Shown here in pieces: positions 6,650-63,151 of a stretch of DNA of 64,000 nucleotides (within the stretch, counting starts at the first letter, position 1; each line of letters begins with the position of its first letter). The position numbers and the translations under genes were made by a program. The notes beneath the pieces are model-generated. The model ran no database searches. It was not told where the DNA came from and was given only the letters and a program-made list of their open reading frames with translations. This DNA comes from a virus: IMG/VR virus record IMGVR_UViG_3300042301_003932. One strand, 5' to 3'.

Positions 6650-8413
6650 ATGGAAGAATTAATTTCAAAAACGCCTGAAACAAGGGCCCTTCAAATGTTA
6701 GATGATTATGTTGGGTCAAATAACTATATCTTGTCGTTAAAAAACAAAAAACAAAATAGTAAGTCTTTTACCCCCACAAGATCTCAAGCTGAATACATAA
6801 TTAACTTTCACGGACGAACACCAAAGGTGGCAAAAAAATGGGTCAAACTTGATTCATATTTTGGAAAAAAAATGATGGAAGATAAAATGTACACTAAAGA
6901 ACCAACGGAAATATATGTTGAAAAACTTTTGGTTGAAAAAGATAAGTCGTATCATATTTGGGGTAAAATATTTAGTGGTGAAACAATACATGATTTTTGG
7001 ATTCCAAAAACCGCACTTATAAAAGATAATGAGGTAAAGAATGTTGTTATTGAATATTCTAAATATAATCACAGGGCTCCGATGGATCACCAAAAAGAAG
7101 CAATTGAAAAACTTGTTAGAAACAAAAAGTTTATTTTGGCTGATGATATGGGACTTGGTAAAACAACCTCAACAATTATTTCGGCATTAGAGACGGGAGC
7201 AAAAAAAATATTAATTGTTTGTCCAGCCTCATTAAAGATAAATTGGCAACGTGAAATTGAAAATTATTCAGATAGGTCTGTTTATATTTCGGAAGGTAAG
7301 AAGTTTTCAACTGAATCTGATTTTGTTATAATTAATTACGACATATTAAAAAACTTTCACGACCCAAAAAAGAAAGATGAATCAATAATTCTAAACACTA
7401 ATTTTGATTTGGTTATAATGGACGAAGCACATATGATTTCAAATCCACAAGCACAAAGAACAAAAATAGTAAATGATTTATGTGGTAACGTTGAAAGGGT
7501 TTGGTTATTAACGGGAACACCGATGACCTCAAGACCTATGAATTATTATAATCTTTTGAGTTTAGTTGAAAGTCCTGTTGCCGCAAATTGGATGGCATAC
7601 GCCAAAAGATATTGTAATGGTTTTCAATTTAGCGTAGGTAAAAGAAAAGTTTGGAATGTAACAGGTGCGTCTAATTTAGATGAGTTAAGAGAAAGAACAC
7701 AAACTCACATTTTAAGAAGATTAAAAGAAGATGTTTTAGATTTACCAGATAAAATTATTACTCCTGTTTATTTAAGATTAAAATCAAAAGATTACGAAGA
7801 ATTAATGGGTGAATACTTTAATTGGTATGATAATAATTCAGAGGAGTCATCATCACTTACAATTCAGTTTGGTAAGTTAATGAAAGTAAGAAAGGTAATT
7901 GCCGAAGAAAAAGTTAAAAACACAATTGAATTGGCTGAAAACATTATTGAACAAGGTAAAAAAGTAATCATATTTACAAACTTTACTGACACTTTACGAA
8001 CCATTTATGACCATTTTGGAAAACAAGCAGTTTATTTAGACGGGTCTTGTTCAAAACCTCATAGACAAAAGGCGGTGGATGATTTTCAAGAAAACGACAA
8101 AATAAAAGTTTTTGTTGGTAATTTAAAGGCCGCAGGTGTCGGTATTACTTTAACATCTGCAGAAGCCGTAATCATGAATGATTTATCTTTTGTCCCCGCA
8201 GAACACGCACAAGCAGAAGATAGATCACATAGAATTGGTCAAAAAAATTCAACATCGGTATATTATCCTCTTTTTGAAAATACAATAGAGGGAGTGATAT
8301 ATGACATCCTCAATAGGAAGAAAAAAATCATATCAACTGTTATGGGTGACAACATGATGGAAGACGCATCAACAATTGAAGAAATGTTAAATTTAATTTC
8401 TCATAAGAGGTGA
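6650..8413 (+). CDS. SNF2-family helicase/ATPase (SMARCAL1/HARP-like)
   Basis: LADDMGLGKT, CPASL, DEAH, LTGTP, GVGITLT, QAEDRSHRIGQ. Confidence 0.93.
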   Translation: MEELISKTPETRALQMLDDYVGSNNYILSLKNKKQNSKSFTPTRSQAEYIINFHGRTPKVAKKWVKLDSYFGKKMMEDKMYTKEPTEIYVEKLLVEKDKSYHIWGKIFSGETIHDFWIPKTALIKDNEVKNVVIEYSKYNHRAPMDHQKEAIEKLVRNKKFILADDMGLGKTTSTIISALETGAKKILIVCPASLKINWQREIENYSDRSVYISEGKKFSTESDFVIINYDILKNFHDPKKKDESIILNTNFDLVIMDEAHMISNPQAQRTKIVNDLCGNVERVWLLTGTPMTSRPMNYYNLLSLVESPVAANWMAYAKRYCNGFQFSVGKRKVWNVTGASNLDELRERTQTHILRRLKEDVLDLPDKIITPVYLRLKSKDYEELMGEYFNWYDNNSEESSSLTIQFGKLMKVRKVIAEEKVKNTIELAENIIEQGKKVIIFTNFTDTLRTIYDHFGKQAVYLDGSCSKPHRQKAVDDFQENDKIKVFVGNLKAAGVGITLTSAEAVIMNDLSFVPAEHAQAEDRSHRIGQKNSTSVYYPLFENTIEGVIYDILNRKKKIISTVMGDNMMEDASTIEEMLNLISHKR

Positions 8414-57443: not shown

Positions 57444-57887
57444 ATGAATATCAGTAGAATAATAAAAAGAGTATTAAGAGAAGAAGAAAAAAAACATTCA
57501 AGTAGATATATGTTCTTTTCAAATCTTGAACAAATGAAGAGACAGTGTGAAATGTTATTGGATATGGATCAAGATGAAATTGAGTCTATTTTAGAAAACG
57601 GACATGATTGGGCCCAAGACCATATCTCTGAAGCTAAAAATAATATGGACCAAGTTTTTGATTTTTTAAAAAATGAAATGGAAGGTGGTAGTGATTATGA
57701 AGAAGATATGATTGAAGAAGGTCGTAAAAAAACGGGAACTAAATTATGTGCTAGAGGTAAAGCGGCGGCTAAATCAAGATATGATGTATTTCCAAGTGCA
57801 TATAGTAATGGTCACGGTGTACAAGTTTGTAAAGGAAAAATTAAAGGACTGGACGGTAAAAGAAGATGTTCACCACCATATTGTTAA
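57444..57887 (+). CDS. Protein with leader, acidic helix and basic PSAY domain (DUF5872-like N-half)
   Basis: MNISRIIKRVLREE; HDWAQDHI; LCARGKAAAKSRYDVFPSAYSNG..VQVCKG. Confidence 0.65.
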   Translation: MNISRIIKRVLREEEKKHSSRYMFFSNLEQMKRQCEMLLDMDQDEIESILENGHDWAQDHISEAKNNMDQVFDFLKNEMEGGSDYEEDMIEEGRKKTGTKLCARGKAAAKSRYDVFPSAYSNGHGVQVCKGKIKGLDGKRRCSPPYC

Positions 57888-58594
57888 AGACCTGATAAAA
57901 TATTTCTTACAATGATATCTAAAGACTCTTTTTGAGTCTTTTTTGTTTTATAAGAGGTCATTACAGGTTTTTGCCCCTTACCTGACTGAGTATCTTTTTT
58001 CTCCGCTCTTCTTTTTTGTTGACATGCAGATCTTTTTTGTGAATCAGACATTTTGCCAGCAACACCAGCGGCTCTACATTTAGGATACGCACCTTTACTA
58101 GTGTCACTTCTACCACAAGGAGGATGTTTACCATCAACTTTTCTACATATATCCACCCACGGCCCTTTTGGTTGTGACGATCCTTTTGGCTTTTTCTTTT
58201 TTCCAAACCAAACGGCTAAATCTTCATTTAATGGTATTTTATCTAATTCAACCCATTCATTAACAGGAACAATTCTTTTACCTTTACCTGGTGTTTGATT
58301 AATAATTCCACCATCTTCATCATTTGCTTGAGGATGTTTTTTATTGTATTTAGAAATTTTACGAGATTTTGTTTCTAATTTTTTTCTATCTTTTTTATGT
58401 GAGTCCAAAGAACCATCATAACTATCATACTCTAGCTCAGCATTAAAAAATTTTGAAACTTTATTTGTAAAAGGACCTAAAGAGGATTTTTCCCAATCAA
58501 TTTCACCCATTGTTAATGGTCCATTATAATAACCTGCATATCTGTCAGAATTTGCCTCTTTCAATATGTTTTTAACAATTAAATTAATATTCAT
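57884..58594 (-). CDS. Basic Cys-containing protein (DUF5872-like C-half)
   Basis: EDLAVWF...WVDIC...PCGR...YPKCR...KRRAE. TATTTAT at 58603-58609. Confidence 0.65.
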   Translation of the reverse strand: MNINLIVKNILKEANSDRYAGYYNGPLTMGEIDWEKSSLGPFTNKVSKFFNAELEYDSYDGSLDSHKKDRKKLETKSRKISKYNKKHPQANDEDGGIINQTPGKGKRIVPVNEWVELDKIPLNEDLAVWFGKKKKPKGSSQPKGPWVDICRKVDGKHPPCGRSDTSKGAYPKCRAAGVAGKMSDSQKRSACQQKRRAEKKDTQSGKGQKPVMTSYKTKKTQKESLDIIVRNILSGL

Positions 58595-58611: not shown

Positions 58612-61191
58612 TTAATATTTGGTTATTTTTCTCATAGTTCCATCATCATAAATTTCAATTATAATTCCATGTACATTTTCAGGTTTAACTTCTTGACCCA
58701 TTAAATTAATATAACCTATAATTTTTTTATCTGTAACATCCCTCGTGATAACTATCGGTCCATACGTTTCAAATTTACCGTCAATATCAAATTGTTGTAA
58801 TCTATAATAAACAATACTATTTAAATTATTATCAATATATGAATATCTTATAGTTTCATTACTATTACCAGCGGCAGATTTTGTTGTAATAGTCTTCCAA
58901 TTATTACCGTCATTACTTGATTCTAAATCAAAATGACTTGAGTTGTTTTCAGATTCTGTTGACCATTTAATCACATTAAATAATGGGTATAAATCACCTT
59001 CAAATTGACTCAATTCAACAGGTAATGGGACACTTAATAGTATACTGTATTCTTCTATTTCACCATAACCATATCCTGTTGAATAATAAGCATCATTTGT
59101 TGGTGTTGCATTCCAAACAGAAAGTACTCTCATTTTAACTGTACCCCCAATAGCATCATTTGGTACATTAACAGATGCGGAACCTATCGCACCTGGTGCC
59201 GATAATAATACATTTTCTGTTGTTTGAAATACCCCGTCTTGGTCCCAATCAATCCAAGCACTATAACCAGGGTACGAACCAAAAGTTAGTGTACCTGAAA
59301 CAGATATTGTATAAACACCACCGATGTCTAAATTACCAACAATTGAAAGGTAATCAGAATACGCGTCTCCGTCTTCAGTAGATGTATTATTAATATCACT
59401 TAAAGTTACATTTGTTATATAATCACCATCACTAACCCCATAAGTATATGGTGGTGCAAGTTCTAATGTGACTAAAATTGGTGATGTAACACCAGCAGGA
59501 CAAGAACCATTTACTGAAGTTGCTCTAAAATACATATTTGTTTGTGCAACATTTAGTTGTAATGTGTATGGCATAACTGGATTTGTAATTGATCCGTCAA
59601 CTGTACTAAAATTATTAAAAGACCATTCTAATAATGTTACACTACCTCCATTTCCCACAATTGAGAATGTAACAGCATCATTTACAACGGTAGATGTTTT
59701 GTTAGAAGAAAGTGTTCCTGCGGTTGTTGGTGTCGTACAGGGTGTTGTAATACAAACTGTAAAAGTACCCCTTGACCCAACAGTGGATGCGTAACTATGA
59801 ATTCTTATGTAGTAAGTAACACCAATACTTAAACTATTAACTGTTGTGGTTTCTACACTATAACCTGCCGTCGCATCAATACAAGATAGTGATGAAAGTC
59901 CACCACAATTACCACCATACACTTGAAAAACAACATCAGCCATAGTACCTGGTGTGACAGTAAGAACATGTGAAGTATTTGTTGCAACAAAAGAAAACCA
60001 TACGTCATCATCAGCACCTGTACCGGCACATGCCGCTGAAGATTGTGTTGCACCAACACTACTAGCGGAAGTTGTTGAGGTACAGGTTGAAGAACTGTTT
60101 ACTGTGACAGATGTTGCATTTGAACAATCATTATTAGTTGGTGGACTTGTACTTGCGGTTGATGCAACCCAAGAACTTGTTAAACCACCACAATTACTTT
60201 GTACATATAAAGTATATGATGTTTGTTGTGTTAAACCGTTTGCGGTTGCAGATGTTGTTCCTGCGGCGACAGAACCTGAAGATACTAGACCTGTTGCCCC
60301 ACTTCCACCAGCACCTGATGATCTAAGTTCCCAATTATACCCATTAGATGGTGGAGAACCAGGTGCCGTCCAAGAAAGATTTGCGGTTGATGATGAAGTG
60401 TACGATATTATTGGTAATGTAGGACCTATACAAGACTGCACAGTCCAAATAAATATTAACCCTGTTGAAGGGACACATCCACTACGAAACCTTACGTTGT
60501 GAGCATTAGATGTTCCAGCGGTTGTACCATTTGGTGCTCCCCAATTTGGTGTTGCATCCGGTATAGAAGTTGTTAATCTTCTGTTATTGTAGTCTGTATT
60601 TGTGGAACCCCTTAAACCAACCATTGGTTGATAAGTTGTACTTGTTGTAATTGTCGTCATATTACCATACACAACACTTATTTGACCATTTGATTTGTTT
60701 ACTCTAATTTGAAATGAAAATCTTTCTGAACTACTTTGTAAATATCTTGCGGCATTTTGCCATTGAAACACCACTTCAGTGCCTACATCCTCCCATCTTC
60801 TTTCATATACTTGTGACGCAATTGCCGTACTTCTTAAATCCATACCCATACCTGCAATAACACCCACTGCAGTACCTGTTGATGATAATGGTCCAGTTAC
60901 ACTATTTCCTGTTGTTGTTGTTCCTGGGTTTAAAAACAAAGCACCATCTGCTGTCATATTAACAGATGTAATTGTTGTATTATTAAACTGAAATTGTGAT
61001 CCGGAAGGTATTGTAAAATAACTACCATCAGTATCATAAGTGACGGCACCGCCAATTGTTGTTACTAATTGCGTACCACCAACAATTGCCGTATATGTAC
61101 CGGTTGTCTCAGAAAATGAATAAAGACTTGATACTTGTGTAAAACCCAAAAAAGAAACTAAGGTGAATAGTATTATTAAAAAATTTTTCAT
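58612..61191 (-). CDS. Secreted T9SS-cargo-like adhesin (signal peptide, FN3, PPC-like, GEVED, CTD)
   Basis: MKNFLIILFTLVSFLGFT-Q; ANLSW..GL...TSY.LYV; NNDC...DDDVWF; AWIDWDQDG.F...GEIEEY; PLPVEL..F; YYRL.Q.D.DG; NLMGQEV...YDDG..RKI. Confidence 0.85.
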   Translation of the reverse strand: MKNFLIILFTLVSFLGFTQVSSLYSFSETTGTYTAIVGGTQLVTTIGGAVTYDTDGSYFTIPSGSQFQFNNTTITSVNMTADGALFLNPGTTTTGNSVTGPLSSTGTAVGVIAGMGMDLRSTAIASQVYERRWEDVGTEVVFQWQNAARYLQSSSERFSFQIRVNKSNGQISVVYGNMTTITTSTTYQPMVGLRGSTNTDYNNRRLTTSIPDATPNWGAPNGTTAGTSNAHNVRFRSGCVPSTGLIFIWTVQSCIGPTLPIISYTSSSTANLSWTAPGSPPSNGYNWELRSSGAGGSGATGLVSSGSVAAGTTSATANGLTQQTSYTLYVQSNCGGLTSSWVASTASTSPPTNNDCSNATSVTVNSSSTCTSTTSASSVGATQSSAACAGTGADDDVWFSFVATNTSHVLTVTPGTMADVVFQVYGGNCGGLSSLSCIDATAGYSVETTTVNSLSIGVTYYIRIHSYASTVGSRGTFTVCITTPCTTPTTAGTLSSNKTSTVVNDAVTFSIVGNGGSVTLLEWSFNNFSTVDGSITNPVMPYTLQLNVAQTNMYFRATSVNGSCPAGVTSPILVTLELAPPYTYGVSDGDYITNVTLSDINNTSTEDGDAYSDYLSIVGNLDIGGVYTISVSGTLTFGSYPGYSAWIDWDQDGVFQTTENVLLSAPGAIGSASVNVPNDAIGGTVKMRVLSVWNATPTNDAYYSTGYGYGEIEEYSILLSVPLPVELSQFEGDLYPLFNVIKWSTESENNSSHFDLESSNDGNNWKTITTKSAAGNSNETIRYSYIDNNLNSIVYYRLQQFDIDGKFETYGPIVITRDVTDKKIIGYINLMGQEVKPENVHGIIIEIYDDGTMRKITKY

Positions 61192-61289
61192 AATTAAGTA
61201 TTTTTTCTTAATAAATACTTTGAAAACGTTTAATTATAAAGTAAATTTTGTGTCAAATGAACATTTAGTGTTATTAAATTATTATTCAT

Positions 61290-61319
61290 AAAAAAAGGAG
61301 ACAATTTCTTGTCTCCTTT
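61290..61319 (-). terminator. Rho-independent terminator after the major capsid gene
   Basis: aaaggagacaa-tttc-ttgtctccttt, with a T run on the minus strand. Confidence 0.9.
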
Positions 61320-61342: not shown

Positions 61343-63151
61343 TTATCTCAATTCTTGTAAGTCAAATGTTCTAACTCCATCAACTGTGATTCTACCATAG
61401 AAACGGTTGTTAACCATTTTCTTAGCGTATCTGGTCATGATACCTTTGATAGGTGTAAAGTTGAATGGGTTATACATTGTAGGTGTTAATTGTAGAGGTA
61501 CATACGGAGCGTAAACATATCCTGTATCTAACAAAGATGAACCTTTGTGTCCAATAAGGATTTGGTTAGCTGGGAAGTATGGATCTCTATACACTTGGTA
61601 ACGACCTGCTAATGTACCAACTCTTTCAATACCCATGTTGTACTGATCTTGCTCCGGAGAAGCGTTAGATACGTGGAAGTACTCTAGGTCATCAAAGATA
61701 GCAGAAACTTCAGAAGATACAACAATCCAGTTAGCCCCACCTCTCAATGTAGATTTGTGGATTTGTGCTGACAATTGGTTAATTGCTGTGATCAAAGTTT
61801 GATTCCAATCTTTTTGAGTATAAGTCATGTTTCCTGGAATTCTTCTCCATCCGTTGTAATCCCATCTTAGGTTCCAAGCTGCACCTTTTCTAAGGTCTCT
61901 CAAGATTTCTCTATCAATTTCTGCTGCCACTTGCTCAGACAATAATGCTGTTAATTCAGCCTCAGCGTCAATGTTATGGAATGCAGAAACGTCTTGTGCT
62001 AATTCAGGTGACCATTGTGCTCTTAGTTTTCTTTCTGTAACTGATACAGTAACTGACTCAAGGTCAAAAGATACTTCACCAATTTTATCTTCAAATTCTA
62101 ATTCAGCATATCTTCTAAATACAGCTACAAAAGAAGTACCCGAAGAACCTGAAGTGATTGTTGCTCCTGTATAACCATCTAAAGATGATGCGTTACAATC
62201 AGCACATACAGGACAAGAAAGATCAACTTCTAAATAGATACATCCGTTTTGATCACAAACTTGATCATAAGATCCACCATTTCCGTTAGGGAATGTTGTT
62301 GGTGTTTGTGTATATGTAGGAGAAACAATACCTTTACCGTATTGTTGAGTAACGACTCTAAACAACAATGGAGTTGCTGTAGGAACAGAACAAGCACTAC
62401 CTTCAGCAATACTCAAACCTGTTGATCTGATAATTTTTAAGTCAGACAAGAAAGTCTCACTATCAACCTCTGATCCATCAGGTCCGATTAATTTACCAAC
62501 ACCATTATCATAAAAACCACACATTTTAACAAGAAGTTTTCTTTGAACACCTGTTGGAGCCAATGAATCAACTAATGATCCATTTGACCAAACTTGGATT
62601 GTTGTAGTTGCTGTAACTGCAGTCCATGTACCTTTAGAATAGTCAAATAATCCTGGAGGATCTAATGCCGCCTCAGCACCTTCATAAAATAAATCATAAA
62701 GATTTTTAGCGTAAGCGTCAGCACCATCATAACCTGTACCATCAGCCGCGTTATAGTTTGCCGAACCAATTGGTGCGAAGTGGTTTGTTCCTGCAGCGGT
62801 ATCAGCTGAGTTATAACCTTGAATTTTAGGTACAAAGTAGAACAATTTACCGATTGGTAAGTTCATTGCTTGTACAGATACTAAATCATTTGCTAATAAT
62901 TTAGAGAATACTCTTCTAACGATAGGAAATACTACAGTTTCAAATGAACCTGAACTGTCAGTAGATGCTGCTTCGTTAATTAGGTGAGACGCTTGGTTTT
63001 CATATAATTGTGCCATGTTCTCTTTAACGTGTCCTTTAAGACCGTCTAGGAATCCTAATCTATCCCATTTGTTAATTGTATCTTCTTTGATAACTTTCAA
63101 GTGCTTAAGACCGATGTTACCAACAAGACCTGATTCTAATAATGCTCCCAT
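61343..63151 (-). CDS. Major capsid protein (T4 gp23-like)
   Basis: LYENQ, PIVRRV, VSVQAM..P.G..F, RKLRAQWSPELAQD..AFH.IDAEAEL, EIDREI, YAPYVPL, FTP..G.MTRY. Confidence 0.97.
   Translation of the reverse strand: MGALLESGLVGNIGLKHLKVIKEDTINKWDRLGFLDGLKGHVKENMAQLYENQASHLINEAASTDSSGSFETVVFPIVRRVFSKLLANDLVSVQAMNLPIGKLFYFVPKIQGYNSADTAAGTNHFAPIGSANYNAADGTGYDGADAYAKNLYDLFYEGAEAALDPPGLFDYSKGTWTAVTATTTIQVWSNGSLVDSLAPTGVQRKLLVKMCGFYDNGVGKLIGPDGSEVDSETFLSDLKIIRSTGLSIAEGSACSVPTATPLLFRVVTQQYGKGIVSPTYTQTPTTFPNGNGGSYDQVCDQNGCIYLEVDLSCPVCADCNASSLDGYTGATITSGSSGTSFVAVFRRYAELEFEDKIGEVSFDLESVTVSVTERKLRAQWSPELAQDVSAFHNIDAEAELTALLSEQVAAEIDREILRDLRKGAAWNLRWDYNGWRRIPGNMTYTQKDWNQTLITAINQLSAQIHKSTLRGGANWIVVSSEVSAIFDDLEYFHVSNASPEQDQYNMGIERVGTLAGRYQVYRDPYFPANQILIGHKGSSLLDTGYVYAPYVPLQLTPTMYNPFNFTPIKGIMTRYAKKMVNNRFYGRITVDGVRTFDLQELR

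Follow-up and report, generated by a model that had tools for sequence, protein, structure and literature searches.

A signal-peptide-bearing, adhesin-like gene beside the capsid gene of a T4-like water phage ends in a short tail that may be a minimal type IX sorting signal

What use could a T4-like phage make of a gene in its head module whose product begins with a Sec signal peptide? The question is raised by IMG/VR record IMGVR_UViG_3300042301_003932, from which a stretch of 64,000 nucleotides (the window) was analysed. An initial annotation had read one gene there, P0001 (hereafter the cassette gene), as phage-encoded cargo of the host type IX secretion system (T9SS). Its ORF, encoding 859 aa, was recovered exactly as annotated, and its parts and neighbours are collected in Table 1.

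Table 1. Features of the cassette gene and its surroundings (residues refer to the cassette protein)
Feature	Coordinates	Strand	Description
Cassette gene P0001	58612..61191	-	from N- to C-terminus: signal peptide, passenger, FN3-like domain, tail; homologs in synteny in 17 viral contigs
Sec/SPase I signal peptide, residues 1-18	61138..61191	-	predicted cleavage between T18 and Q19 (Q-rule)
N-terminal all-beta domain, residues 20-262	60406..61134	-	no family; AF2 pLDDT 77, pTM 0.85
fn3, residues 264-336	60184..60402	-	PF00041 E 7e-7
GBD_T9SS_assoc (galactose-binding-like), residues 352-477	59761..60138	-	PF23759 E 2e-7 to 1e-8
Middle region, residues 486-640	59272..59736	-	includes N-terminal part of GEVED-containing unit; conserved among homologs
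GEVED, residues 643-717	59041..59265	-	PF20009 E 1e-13
"PLPVEL" FN3-like beta-sandwich, residues 721-818	58738..59031	-	AF2 pLDDT 87.5; VIA Z 9-10 to FN3 domains
Short C-terminal tail, residues 819-859	58615..58737	-	41 aa, …KKIIGYINLMGQEV…GIIIEIYDDGTMRKITKY; three strands, D-like and E-like motifs, conserved Lys
Gp23-type major capsid protein, upstream neighbour	61343..63151	-	602 aa, ~200-aa insertion; PF07068 2e-73, phrog_138
orf236, conserved downstream gene	57884..58594	-	basic/charged, own TATTTAT
TATTTAT, candidate phage late-promoter element	61211..61217	-	19 nt upstream of ATG
Intrinsic-terminator-like hairpin and T-run	61287..61319	-	11 bp, loop GAAA; after capsid stop

The claimed position next to the major capsid gene was confirmed by the PF07068 match of the neighbour and by synteny. 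The nearest relatives of the capsid protein belong to Flavobacterium phage immuto, Microcystis phage Mel-JY01 and uncultured huge phages. It had been proposed to check whether related phages have the gene at this locus, and they do: the order capsid-cassette-orf236 is repeated in 17 independent IMG/VR contigs. A chimeric assembly, which had been named as a possible refutation, is therefore not the case. The cassette gene is single-copy and occurs in every related contig that spans the locus. Its phage neighbours are charged head-type proteins, orf236 being a possible internal head protein. The source is a large, uncultured, T4-like water phage, and the cassette gene lies within its head-gene module.

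Sense copies of TATTTAT were found within 60 nt upstream of 17 of the 56 genes, compared with 2.7 ± 1.6 (maximum 9) in 1000 shuffles and 4 in the antisense control, so that the motif stands upstream of phage genes beyond chance. The cassette gene does have its own copy past the capsid terminator, as had been noted, in the form of a promoter-like motif, and late expression of the gene is probable.

The signal peptide, MKNFLIILFTLVSFLGFT followed by Gln, was called by a heuristic combined with conservation. The heuristic asks for K or R among residues 1-8, a 10-mer of hydrophobic character (KD ≥ 2.0), and a small-x-small motif directly followed by Gln at residue 19-21. All three properties are present in 22 of 22 distinct N-termini of the family, and they are kept across variants while the sequence of the leader varies. 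Among ORFs of at least 80 aa with an ATG start in the 64-kb window, the cassette gene is the sole one to pass the heuristic and also the sole bearer of the tail. The earlier call of a Sec signal peptide followed by Gln is upheld by this survey, and the leader obeys the Q-rule, which is Bacteroidetes-specific (PMC5837995). A lipoprotein signal was ruled out, there being no Cys at +1.

The passenger consists of binding-type beta domains only: an N-terminal domain of no assigned family, fn3, the galactose-binding-like domain and GEVED. The FN3, PPC-like, GEVED and PLPVEL domains of the initial annotation were all recovered, the first three as PF00041, PF23759 and PF20009 and the last as an FN3-like sandwich by AF2 and VIA, and the Pfam matches support its description of the passenger as adhesin-type. 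The "PPC-like" domain corresponds to PF23759, whose cellular relatives also touch PF04151 (PPC). The N-terminal domain matched no Pfam family and, by Foldseek, no PDB entry (E > 0.3); its best VIA hit, with a Z of 5.5 that lies below the noise level of the tool, was to beta-sandwich domains of glycosidases. Atlas returned NIDO at 0.90 for the same domain, a soft lead only. No Pfam family matched the middle region (residues 486-640). N-terminal domains 30-40% identical occur in large Flavobacteriales proteins, and GBD_T9SS_assoc copies 45-63% identical occur in Flavobacteriales genomes.

The C-terminal end had been described as CTD-like, and as a T9SS C-terminal sorting domain (CTD) it is not recognisable. 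Neither TIGR04183 nor PF18962, the type-A models, matched the whole protein or its C-terminal pieces, the tail alone included, at E ≤ 10; of the HMM searches that had been suggested, GEVED was thus positive and TIGR04183 negative. The same two models do match three homologs of the phage protein (P0027, P0033 and P0034), the viral contig L048 discussed below, and 116-150 or more proteins per cellular genome. They match none of the tails of the cellular bearers either. Scanning with Pfam and NCBIfam gave no match to type-B CTDs (TIGR04131 and PF13585). A CTD is a sandwich of seven strands (PMC10994853, PMC11285876), and a compact CTD fold is reported to be essential in Porphyromonas gingivalis (PMC11285876); the AF2 model of residues 819-859 has three short strands and not the 7-strand sandwich. 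Comparison of the tail profile with 34 CTDs by hhalign was marginal (P 0.02, probability ~2%). At this weak score the global alignment makes the tail collinear with CTD motifs D and E, with NLxGQxV opposite motif D, GxxIExYxDG..K opposite motif E and 15 aa deleted, and the Lys is at least 90% conserved. For HBP35, the last 22 aa of the CTD, comprising motifs D and E, suffice for secretion of GFP, and the Lys of motif E is required (reviewed in PMC10202324). A decayed or truncated CTD was ruled out, because cells conserve a tail of the same length and purifying selection acts on it. The tail is a distinct class of end-tag, unmodelled by Pfam and NCBIfam.

Cellular proteins place this end-tag more closely. 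The PLPVEL domain, a 7-strand sandwich by AF2 on alignment A2, usually comes last but one in cellular proteins, ahead of a type-A CTD, and in the genomes that hold short tails it is directly followed by PF18962. The module made of the FN3-like domain and the tail ends 0-3 aa from the C-terminus in 131 of 131 cluster representatives, all 20 cellular bearers retrieved end in the tail, and hydrophobic leaders are present in 97 of the 111 full-length representatives; 115,209 cluster representatives matched the module profile (a count given for the PLPVEL FN3-like domain). Those genus-labelled bearers that were looked up are all Crocinitomicaceae. In those genomes type-A CTDs number at least 116-150 and short tails ~2-9. 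The module is an obligately C-terminal element of signal-peptide proteins of the Crocinitomicaceae, in the slot of the far commoner type-A CTD. The natural counterpart of this exchange is seen in P0027, P0033 and P0034, which are 67-80% identical to the phage protein over ~820 aa (P0027, 78-80%) and carry a true type-A CTD in place of the tail. Searches of 401 Flavobacteriales genomes returned domain-level matches and no full-length homolog, nor was one found in a scan of genome contigs with two patterns; a metagenome scan with the P0027/L048-type CTD returned 29 loci, none of them a full-length homolog beside phage head genes. The value of the protein as a host indicator, asserted by the initial annotation, is borne out and sharpened: the lineage-restricted tail permits a family-level host prediction, Crocinitomicaceae, for uncultured large phages.

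Twenty-two distinct phage variants were compared. All have the leader, every complete one has the tail, and at least four architectures with mosaic dS occur among them. Short forms of 463 aa were apparent only and arose from non-ATG starts. Over deep divergences (dS up to 0.9), dN/dS is 0.12-0.35 for the whole gene and ~0.2-0.55 for the tail, and purifying selection acts on all parts of the protein. The dS of the fn3 segment is at background level (0.79-1.05) against contigs L001, L002, L003 and L005. The pattern of divergence indicates that passenger domains are swapped by sub-genic recombination while the export and sorting ends stay constant, a sign that selection acts on the binding targets of the infected cell or its lysate. 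All phage cassettes bear the rare tail and not the common CTD; genuine type-A CTD genes are carried by other large phage contigs (G402, G404). L048, which encodes a CUB/GEVED protein with a true CTD, was considered as a host contig and rejected, its DnaK being only 59-66% identical to 98 Flavobacteriales DnaKs. Its record is a 21%-complete virus according to CheckV and is full of small paralogous ORFs; L048 is probably another jumbo phage.

To account for these features we propose, giving it about an even chance of being right, that the gene encodes a late-made, Sec-exported, lectin- or adhesin-like protein that a minimal D+E-like signal directs out of the cell by way of the host T9SS. In this model the protein would first be exported by Sec and cleaved. 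The tail would then serve as a T9SS signal that is minimal and specific to the lineage, reduced to the D- and E-like strands and the C-terminal Lys, and the host T9SS would accordingly deliver the protein to the surface of the infected cell or into the medium. Once outside, the exchangeable passenger domains might bind glycans or surfaces, and the candidate benefits to the phage are masking of receptors, holding of the infected cell on particles, and conditioning of the lysate. The uses suggested in the initial annotation, namely attachment of the cell to new hosts, a block to superinfection or jamming of the T9SS, stay hypothetical. Of the original proposal of phage-encoded T9SS cargo, the phage context, the Sec leader and the adhesin domains stand, and the recognisable T9SS CTD does not. 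We infer passage through the T9SS from the positional equivalence of tail and CTD, the D/E-like motifs and the natural swap of tail for CTD, not from a family assignment, because the sorting-domain models are negative, the strands number three and the profile similarity is marginal. Two further observations weigh on the other side. The phages always carry the rare tail, in a module that co-diverges with the capsid gene, which could reflect a phage-specific role instead; and the protein in the post-capsid slot of the cultured relative immuto, which has no signal peptide, counts against the model.

The failure of every T9SS family test on the tail, set beside a solid signal peptide, leads to a rather doubtful alternative in which Sec takes the protein over the inner membrane and it then remains periplasmic or envelope-bound, the FN3-like domain and tail serving as an anchoring or interaction element. 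Its predicted role would be receptor masking, exclusion of superinfecting phages or a change of the envelope before lysis. A tail of this size cannot accommodate the canonical fold, and no recurrent porP/sprF-like partner lies beside the 20 cellular short-tail genes, as this alternative would have it. Against it, cellular proteins, and likewise homologs 78-80% identical, have a genuine type-A CTD exactly where the tail stands; the D/E-like motifs and terminal Lys are kept; and GBD_T9SS_assoc and GEVED are typical of surface rather than periplasmic proteins.

The location of the gene in the head module, next after the capsid gene and behind a late-type motif, also suggests decoration of the virion, with the C-terminal module on the capsid and the swappable domains turned outward to glycans. 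In that case either the hydrophobic N-terminus would not work as a signal peptide or the protein, once exported, would encounter capsids only at lysis. In immuto the same slot is filled by a seven-repeat Ig-like protein, and the dS of the C-terminal module (0.57-0.99) resembles that of the capsid gene (0.70-0.87), with which it co-diverges, while passenger segments have been recently exchanged and move between phage backgrounds; the build, a constant anchor with variable display domains, resembles that of T4 Hoc. We nevertheless regard decoration as unlikely: a cleavable signal peptide conserved in 22 of 22 variants is incompatible with cytoplasmic head assembly, secreted proteins of cells, for which there is no capsid to join, bear the same module in abundance, two contigs (G403, G404) carry the cassette with no gp23-type capsid gene detectable nearby, and a PHROGs search with the protein gave no match, to a structural family or otherwise. 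Quite improbable, in our estimate, is a compound form in which the protein is a Sec-exported capsid ornament and not a host-surface adhesin, joining particles at or after lysis through the FN3-like domain and tail; were it true, the swappable lectin domains would be matured outside the cytoplasm (disulfides, pyroglutamate), and tailed-phage assembly would include an extracytoplasmic step. That the gene is a recently captured host gene, hitch-hiking without phage function in a recombination hotspot, is scarcely credible: close homologs do have cellular-type ends (P0027), the locus does accept insertions (an extra 0.9-1.9 kb in L004, L009 and L011) and passenger segments do move, but the gene is single-copy in every related contig spanning the locus, its leaders and, where complete, its tails are intact in 22 distinct variants, its dN/dS is low across deep divergence, and the 401 Flavobacteriales genomes hold no full-length homolog.

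Phage-encoded T9SS cargo, the reading we prefer, is as a concept already known (PMC7468147); the present end-tag is not the standard one. The "Cryophage" of Bacteroidota carry type-A T9SS cargo in flexible islands, and their authors proposed that the host T9SS is hijacked to change the surface of the infected cell (Bellas et al. 2020, Nat Commun, PMC7468147). In both cases the gene is phage-encoded and varies between related phages. The Cryophage genes have recognisable type-A sorting domains with enzyme or PA14 domains, whereas the signal described here fails the type-A models, the passenger is purely of binding type, the gene keeps a fixed post-capsid slot, and exchange is confined to sub-genic passenger segments. 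Proteins with Q-rule signal peptides are also known from P. gingivalis phages, where genes of unknown function have leaders that expose Gln and are read as an adaptation to host export (PMC10367356). Those phages differ in being temperate, siphovirus-type prophages of an oral pathogen, and their proteins are small, with no described C-terminal sorting module.

T4 Hoc lacks a signal peptide, its assembly being cytoplasmic. Hoc and related Ig-like decoration proteins share with the cassette protein a place near the capsid gene in the head module, tandem Ig/FN3-type display domains, a constant C-terminal part and variable outer domains, the cassette gene lying between the capsid gene and those for putative internal head proteins. 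Sequence similarity to Hoc is absent, the C-terminal module is common to cellular secreted proteins, and a conserved leader is present in all variants.

In overall plan the cassette protein resembles type-A CTD cargo such as RgpB, HBP35 and RemA of F. johnsoniae: both have a Sec leader with Gln at +1, a modular beta passenger and an Ig/FN3-like domain, and in both the signal that follows is strictly C-terminal. To these may be added, at marginal profile similarity, the D/E-like motifs with the terminal Lys. The tail differs from those CTDs in having ~41 aa and three strands rather than ~75-90 aa and seven, in giving no HMM match, and in lacking motifs A-C (the PNP strand is absent) as well as the strand that separates D from E. 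A sorting-signal-like tail of ~40 residues after an FN3-like domain is found in well over 100 clusters, from Crocinitomicaceae and phages. If it is a T9SS signal, it would be a natural "D+E-only" minimal CTD and a very small secretion tag, and the disputed length of CTD needed by the translocon would become directly testable. The 22-residue signal of HBP35 (PMC10202324) is the precedent for motifs D and E, and the natural short tail has about the same content; later work, unlike that minimal signal, stresses the need for the whole CTD fold (PMC11285876). The HBP35 fragment is an engineered truncation studied in P. gingivalis, whereas the short tail is a natural, conserved and widespread module of another family.

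The cassette protein opens with a leader, MKNFLIILFTLVSFLGFT (first 18 residues), in which a basic n-region and a 14-residue hydrophobic core precede small residues at −3/−1 and then Gln; among ATG-start ORFs of at least 80 aa in the 64 kb, the cassette ORF alone passed a signal-peptide heuristic. The initial annotation had read a Sec signal peptide followed by Gln and then FN3, PPC-like and GEVED domains. The predicted leader fits this reading, as do 22 of 22 distinct family N-termini, all with a predicted signal peptide of variable sequence but constant character and Gln at the predicted +1, and the domains were recovered as Pfam fn3, GBD_T9SS_assoc and GEVED. No catalytic domain was found with Pfam in the 859-aa protein. 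The N-domain is confidently predicted to be all-beta (pTM 0.85). It matched no family, and structure searches yielded no convincing solved relative (Foldseek E > 0.3; best VIA Z 5.5); a protein atlas hint that it is NIDO-like is only a lead. The last 146 residues are predicted (pLDDT 87.5) to form an FN3-like sandwich and a three-stranded tail. For the sandwich all Pfam and NCBIfam models stayed below threshold, with weak F5_F8_type_C matches only. It was detected in 115,209 cluster representatives (81,405 of them at E <= 1e-10), in which tandem arrays are frequent, with up to 16 copies.

Features of the cassette gene, its neighbors and related loci (window positions unless residues or a locus are named)
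Feature	Position	Strand	Basis or remark
Major capsid gene	61343-63151	minus	602 aa
Cassette ORF	58612..61191	minus	single ORF, 859 aa
All-beta N-domain	residues 20-262		predicted structure
fn3	residues 264-336		Pfam
GBD_T9SS_assoc, galactose-binding-like	residues 352-477		Pfam
GEVED	residues 643-717		Pfam
FN3-like sandwich, PLPVEL at its start	residues ~722-818 (58738-59031)	minus	predicted structure; Z ~10 vs FN3 domains
Three short strands after the sandwich	final ~40 residues		predicted structure
orf236 and orf147	57444-58594	minus; plus	convergent
Extra DNA, capsid to cassette	L004 6118-8000		~1.9 kb
Extra DNA, capsid to cassette	L009, L011 ~7124-8000		~0.87 kb
Capsid-like stretch	G403:C1:27408-27590	plus	within 196-aa ORF
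Type-A CTD	L109 (G404:C1:5556-5774)	minus	end of 1851-aa ORF
Post-capsid gene, phage immuto	L116 8955-10595		NC_055915

Directly upstream on the same strand lies the gene for a Gp23-type major capsid protein (PF07068, 2e-73), whose closest relatives, at 42-46% identity, belong to Flavobacterium phage immuto, a Microcystis phage and uncultured huge phages. The protein aligns to relatives as two pieces (~14-150 and 350-595), a pattern that implies an insertion of ~200 aa. Copies of the cassette gene, 81-97% identical, were found in 17 IMG/VR contigs, and the order orf246, capsid, cassette, orf236 recurs in every one of these that spans the locus, which rules out a chimeric assembly and upholds the reading of the gene as phage-encoded and adjacent to the capsid gene. 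In several contigs conservation of the capsid protein (74-78% aa) falls below that of the adjoining cassette gene (91-97%).

In the capsid-cassette intergenic region there is an 11-bp hairpin accompanied by a T-run, and the heptamer TATTTAT stands 19 nt ahead of the cassette ATG, agreeing with the claim that the gene has its own motif beyond the capsid terminator. Of the 56 window genes, 17 have a sense copy in the 60 nt upstream, against 4 in the antisense control and 2.7 +/- 1.6 (maximum 9) in composition-matched shuffles. Comparable to the T4 late-promoter element TATAAATA, the heptamer is a plausible candidate for the late-promoter element of this phage group. Downstream, orf147 and orf236 encode highly charged proteins, both syntenic in related phages, with similar short leaders (MNISRIIKRVLRE and MNINLIVKNILKE) that resemble the T4 capsid-targeting sequences, which are cut by the prohead protease. 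By this analogy they may be internal head proteins, and the likeness places the cassette gene inside a head-gene module.

Large related contigs carry exactly one cassette gene apiece. Every member with a complete 3' end terminates in the FN3-like domain and short tail, while the middle varies, giving forms of ~545, 662-675 (CUB+GEVED), 708, 858 and 930 aa. Values of dN/dS (0.12-0.35 for the gene, ~0.2-0.55 for the tail) point to purifying selection on all of it. When the window gene was compared with four homologs (L001, L002, L003 and L005), dS over the N-domain and GBD was 0.07-0.12 for all alike; over the middle region and GEVED it stayed at 0.10-0.23 with L001-L003 but reached 0.50 and 0.88 with L005; and over the fn3 segment, FN3-like domain and tail it was 0.57-1.05, similar to the capsid gene (0.70-0.87). 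This mosaic indicates recent exchange of passenger segments between phage backgrounds around a resident C-terminal module. No gp23-type capsid gene was detected in two other cassette-bearing contigs, G403 and G404, so capsid adjacency is not universal. Across the 132-kb G403 contig no full capsid gene was detected; ~1.1 kb downstream of its cassette, a 62-residue stretch of a 196-aa ORF is 61% identical to window-phage capsid residues 372-433. Extra DNA at three loci marks the capsid-cassette junction as an insertion hotspot.

By standard definitions the tail is not a T9SS CTD. The tail had been called CTD-like, of T9SS type, with TIGR04183 proposed as a check; neither this model nor PF18962 matched it, even with the tail alone at E <= 10, and the claim is not supported in that form. 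These models readily match the homologs P0027, P0033 and P0034, locus L048 and, in each Crocinitomicaceae-type genome, 116-150+ proteins. Canonical CTDs fold as a seven-strand sandwich (PMC10994853; PMC11285876), whereas three strands are predicted in the tail. Comparison of the tail profile with 34 genuine CTDs gave P 0.02 and a probability of 2%. The global alignment is collinear: 'lVKxVNllGQeV' is paired with motif D and 'GivIevYxDGsxxK' with motif E, and the tail lacks the strand that lies between the two. The near-terminal Lys is conserved in at least 90%. In P0027, P0033 and P0034, which share 67-80% identity with the phage protein across ~820 residues, a true type-A CTD occupies the equivalent position. 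For the HBP35 CTD, a review reports that a reporter is secreted with no more than the last 22 residues (motifs D+E), that secretion needs the motif-E Lys, and that both motifs contact PorM and PorV (PMC10202324). CTDs of different species are not interchangeable (PMC11285876), in agreement with a lineage-specific signal.

The full module was present in 131 of the 150 best matches from 1.84 billion representatives, ending 0-3 residues from the C-terminus in all 131, and 97 of 111 full-length module-bearing representatives have a hydrophobic leader. In each of the 20 Flavobacteriales proteins fetched for matching residues 720-859, the C-terminus is this tail, unchanged in length; the tail is thus conserved in cells as well as under purifying selection, and a decayed CTD was rejected. 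No sorting-domain model matched the C-terminus of the ten of these proteins that were scanned, and such proteins are annotated 'hypothetical protein' wherever the source names them. In the cellular genomes that encode them, what usually comes straight after the PLPVEL domain is a true type-A CTD; ~2-9 proteins per genome have the short tail in that slot, and the tail occurs also without the FN3-like domain. At 4 of 20 cellular loci (L094, L098, L101, L102), a ~100-aa ORF of one family lies directly upstream of the short-tail gene, slightly overlapping it, and may represent either a partner or an artefact. Among the top 20 cellular matches, every genus-labelled bearer belongs to the Crocinitomicaceae (Brumimicrobium, Fluviicola, Wandonia, Taishania), and a Lishizhenia MAG surfaced in the genome scan. 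The gene's value as a host indicator is thereby strengthened, the host being narrowed from Flavobacteriales to Crocinitomicaceae on the best-matching cellular proteins.

We give an even chance to a model in which the cassette protein would be transcribed late from its own promoter element, exported by Sec with cleavage before Gln, and then carried by the T9SS, under the direction of a minimal D+E-type signal, onto the surface or into the medium, displaying exchangeable lectin-like domains, presumably to the benefit of the phage. What is shown here is the anatomy, the conservation and the positional equivalence; export, dependence on the T9SS and a gain for the phage are inferred. The main rival, Sec export without the T9SS, draws on the tail's failure in the T9SS family tests and appears rather unlikely. 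Decoration of the capsid is improbable: position in the head module, co-divergence of the resident C-terminal module with the capsid gene, and a Hoc-like logic of constant anchor and variable display argue for it, as does the post-capsid gene of immuto, a hypothetical protein of ~seven Ig-like repeats without signal peptide, probably a Hoc-like decoration protein that has escaped annotation; however, a cleavable-type leader conserved in all variants is hard to reconcile with it, and the same module abounds on cellular proteins. That the gene is a functionless hitch-hiker is contradicted by its conservation and dN/dS values and is very improbable.

Genuine type-A CTD genes occur in other large phage contigs. 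The IMG/VR record G402 (L048, L113-L115; 67.7 kb), which looks like a different jumbo phage, encodes a DnaK that shares only 59-66% identity with its Flavobacteriales counterparts. Small paralogous ORFs (MKYLKRFNEELK...) occur in it in runs, and at least six signal-peptide proteins are encoded in a cluster, among them a subtilase and a CUB/GEVED protein that both carry genuine type-A CTDs; in the cassette-bearing G404, the CTD of the 1851-aa ORF scores 45.7 bits, above the Pfam cut-off. Together with the T9SS cargo described in 'Cryophage' (Bellas et al. 2020, PMC7468147) and the Q-rule signal-peptide proteins of P. gingivalis phages (PMC10367356), these genes make the concept of phage-encoded T9SS cargo a known one. 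New relative to these systems are a cassette fixed in the post-capsid slot, whose passengers can be swapped, and a class of short putative C-terminal signal, outside existing models, that is common to Crocinitomicaceae and their phages.
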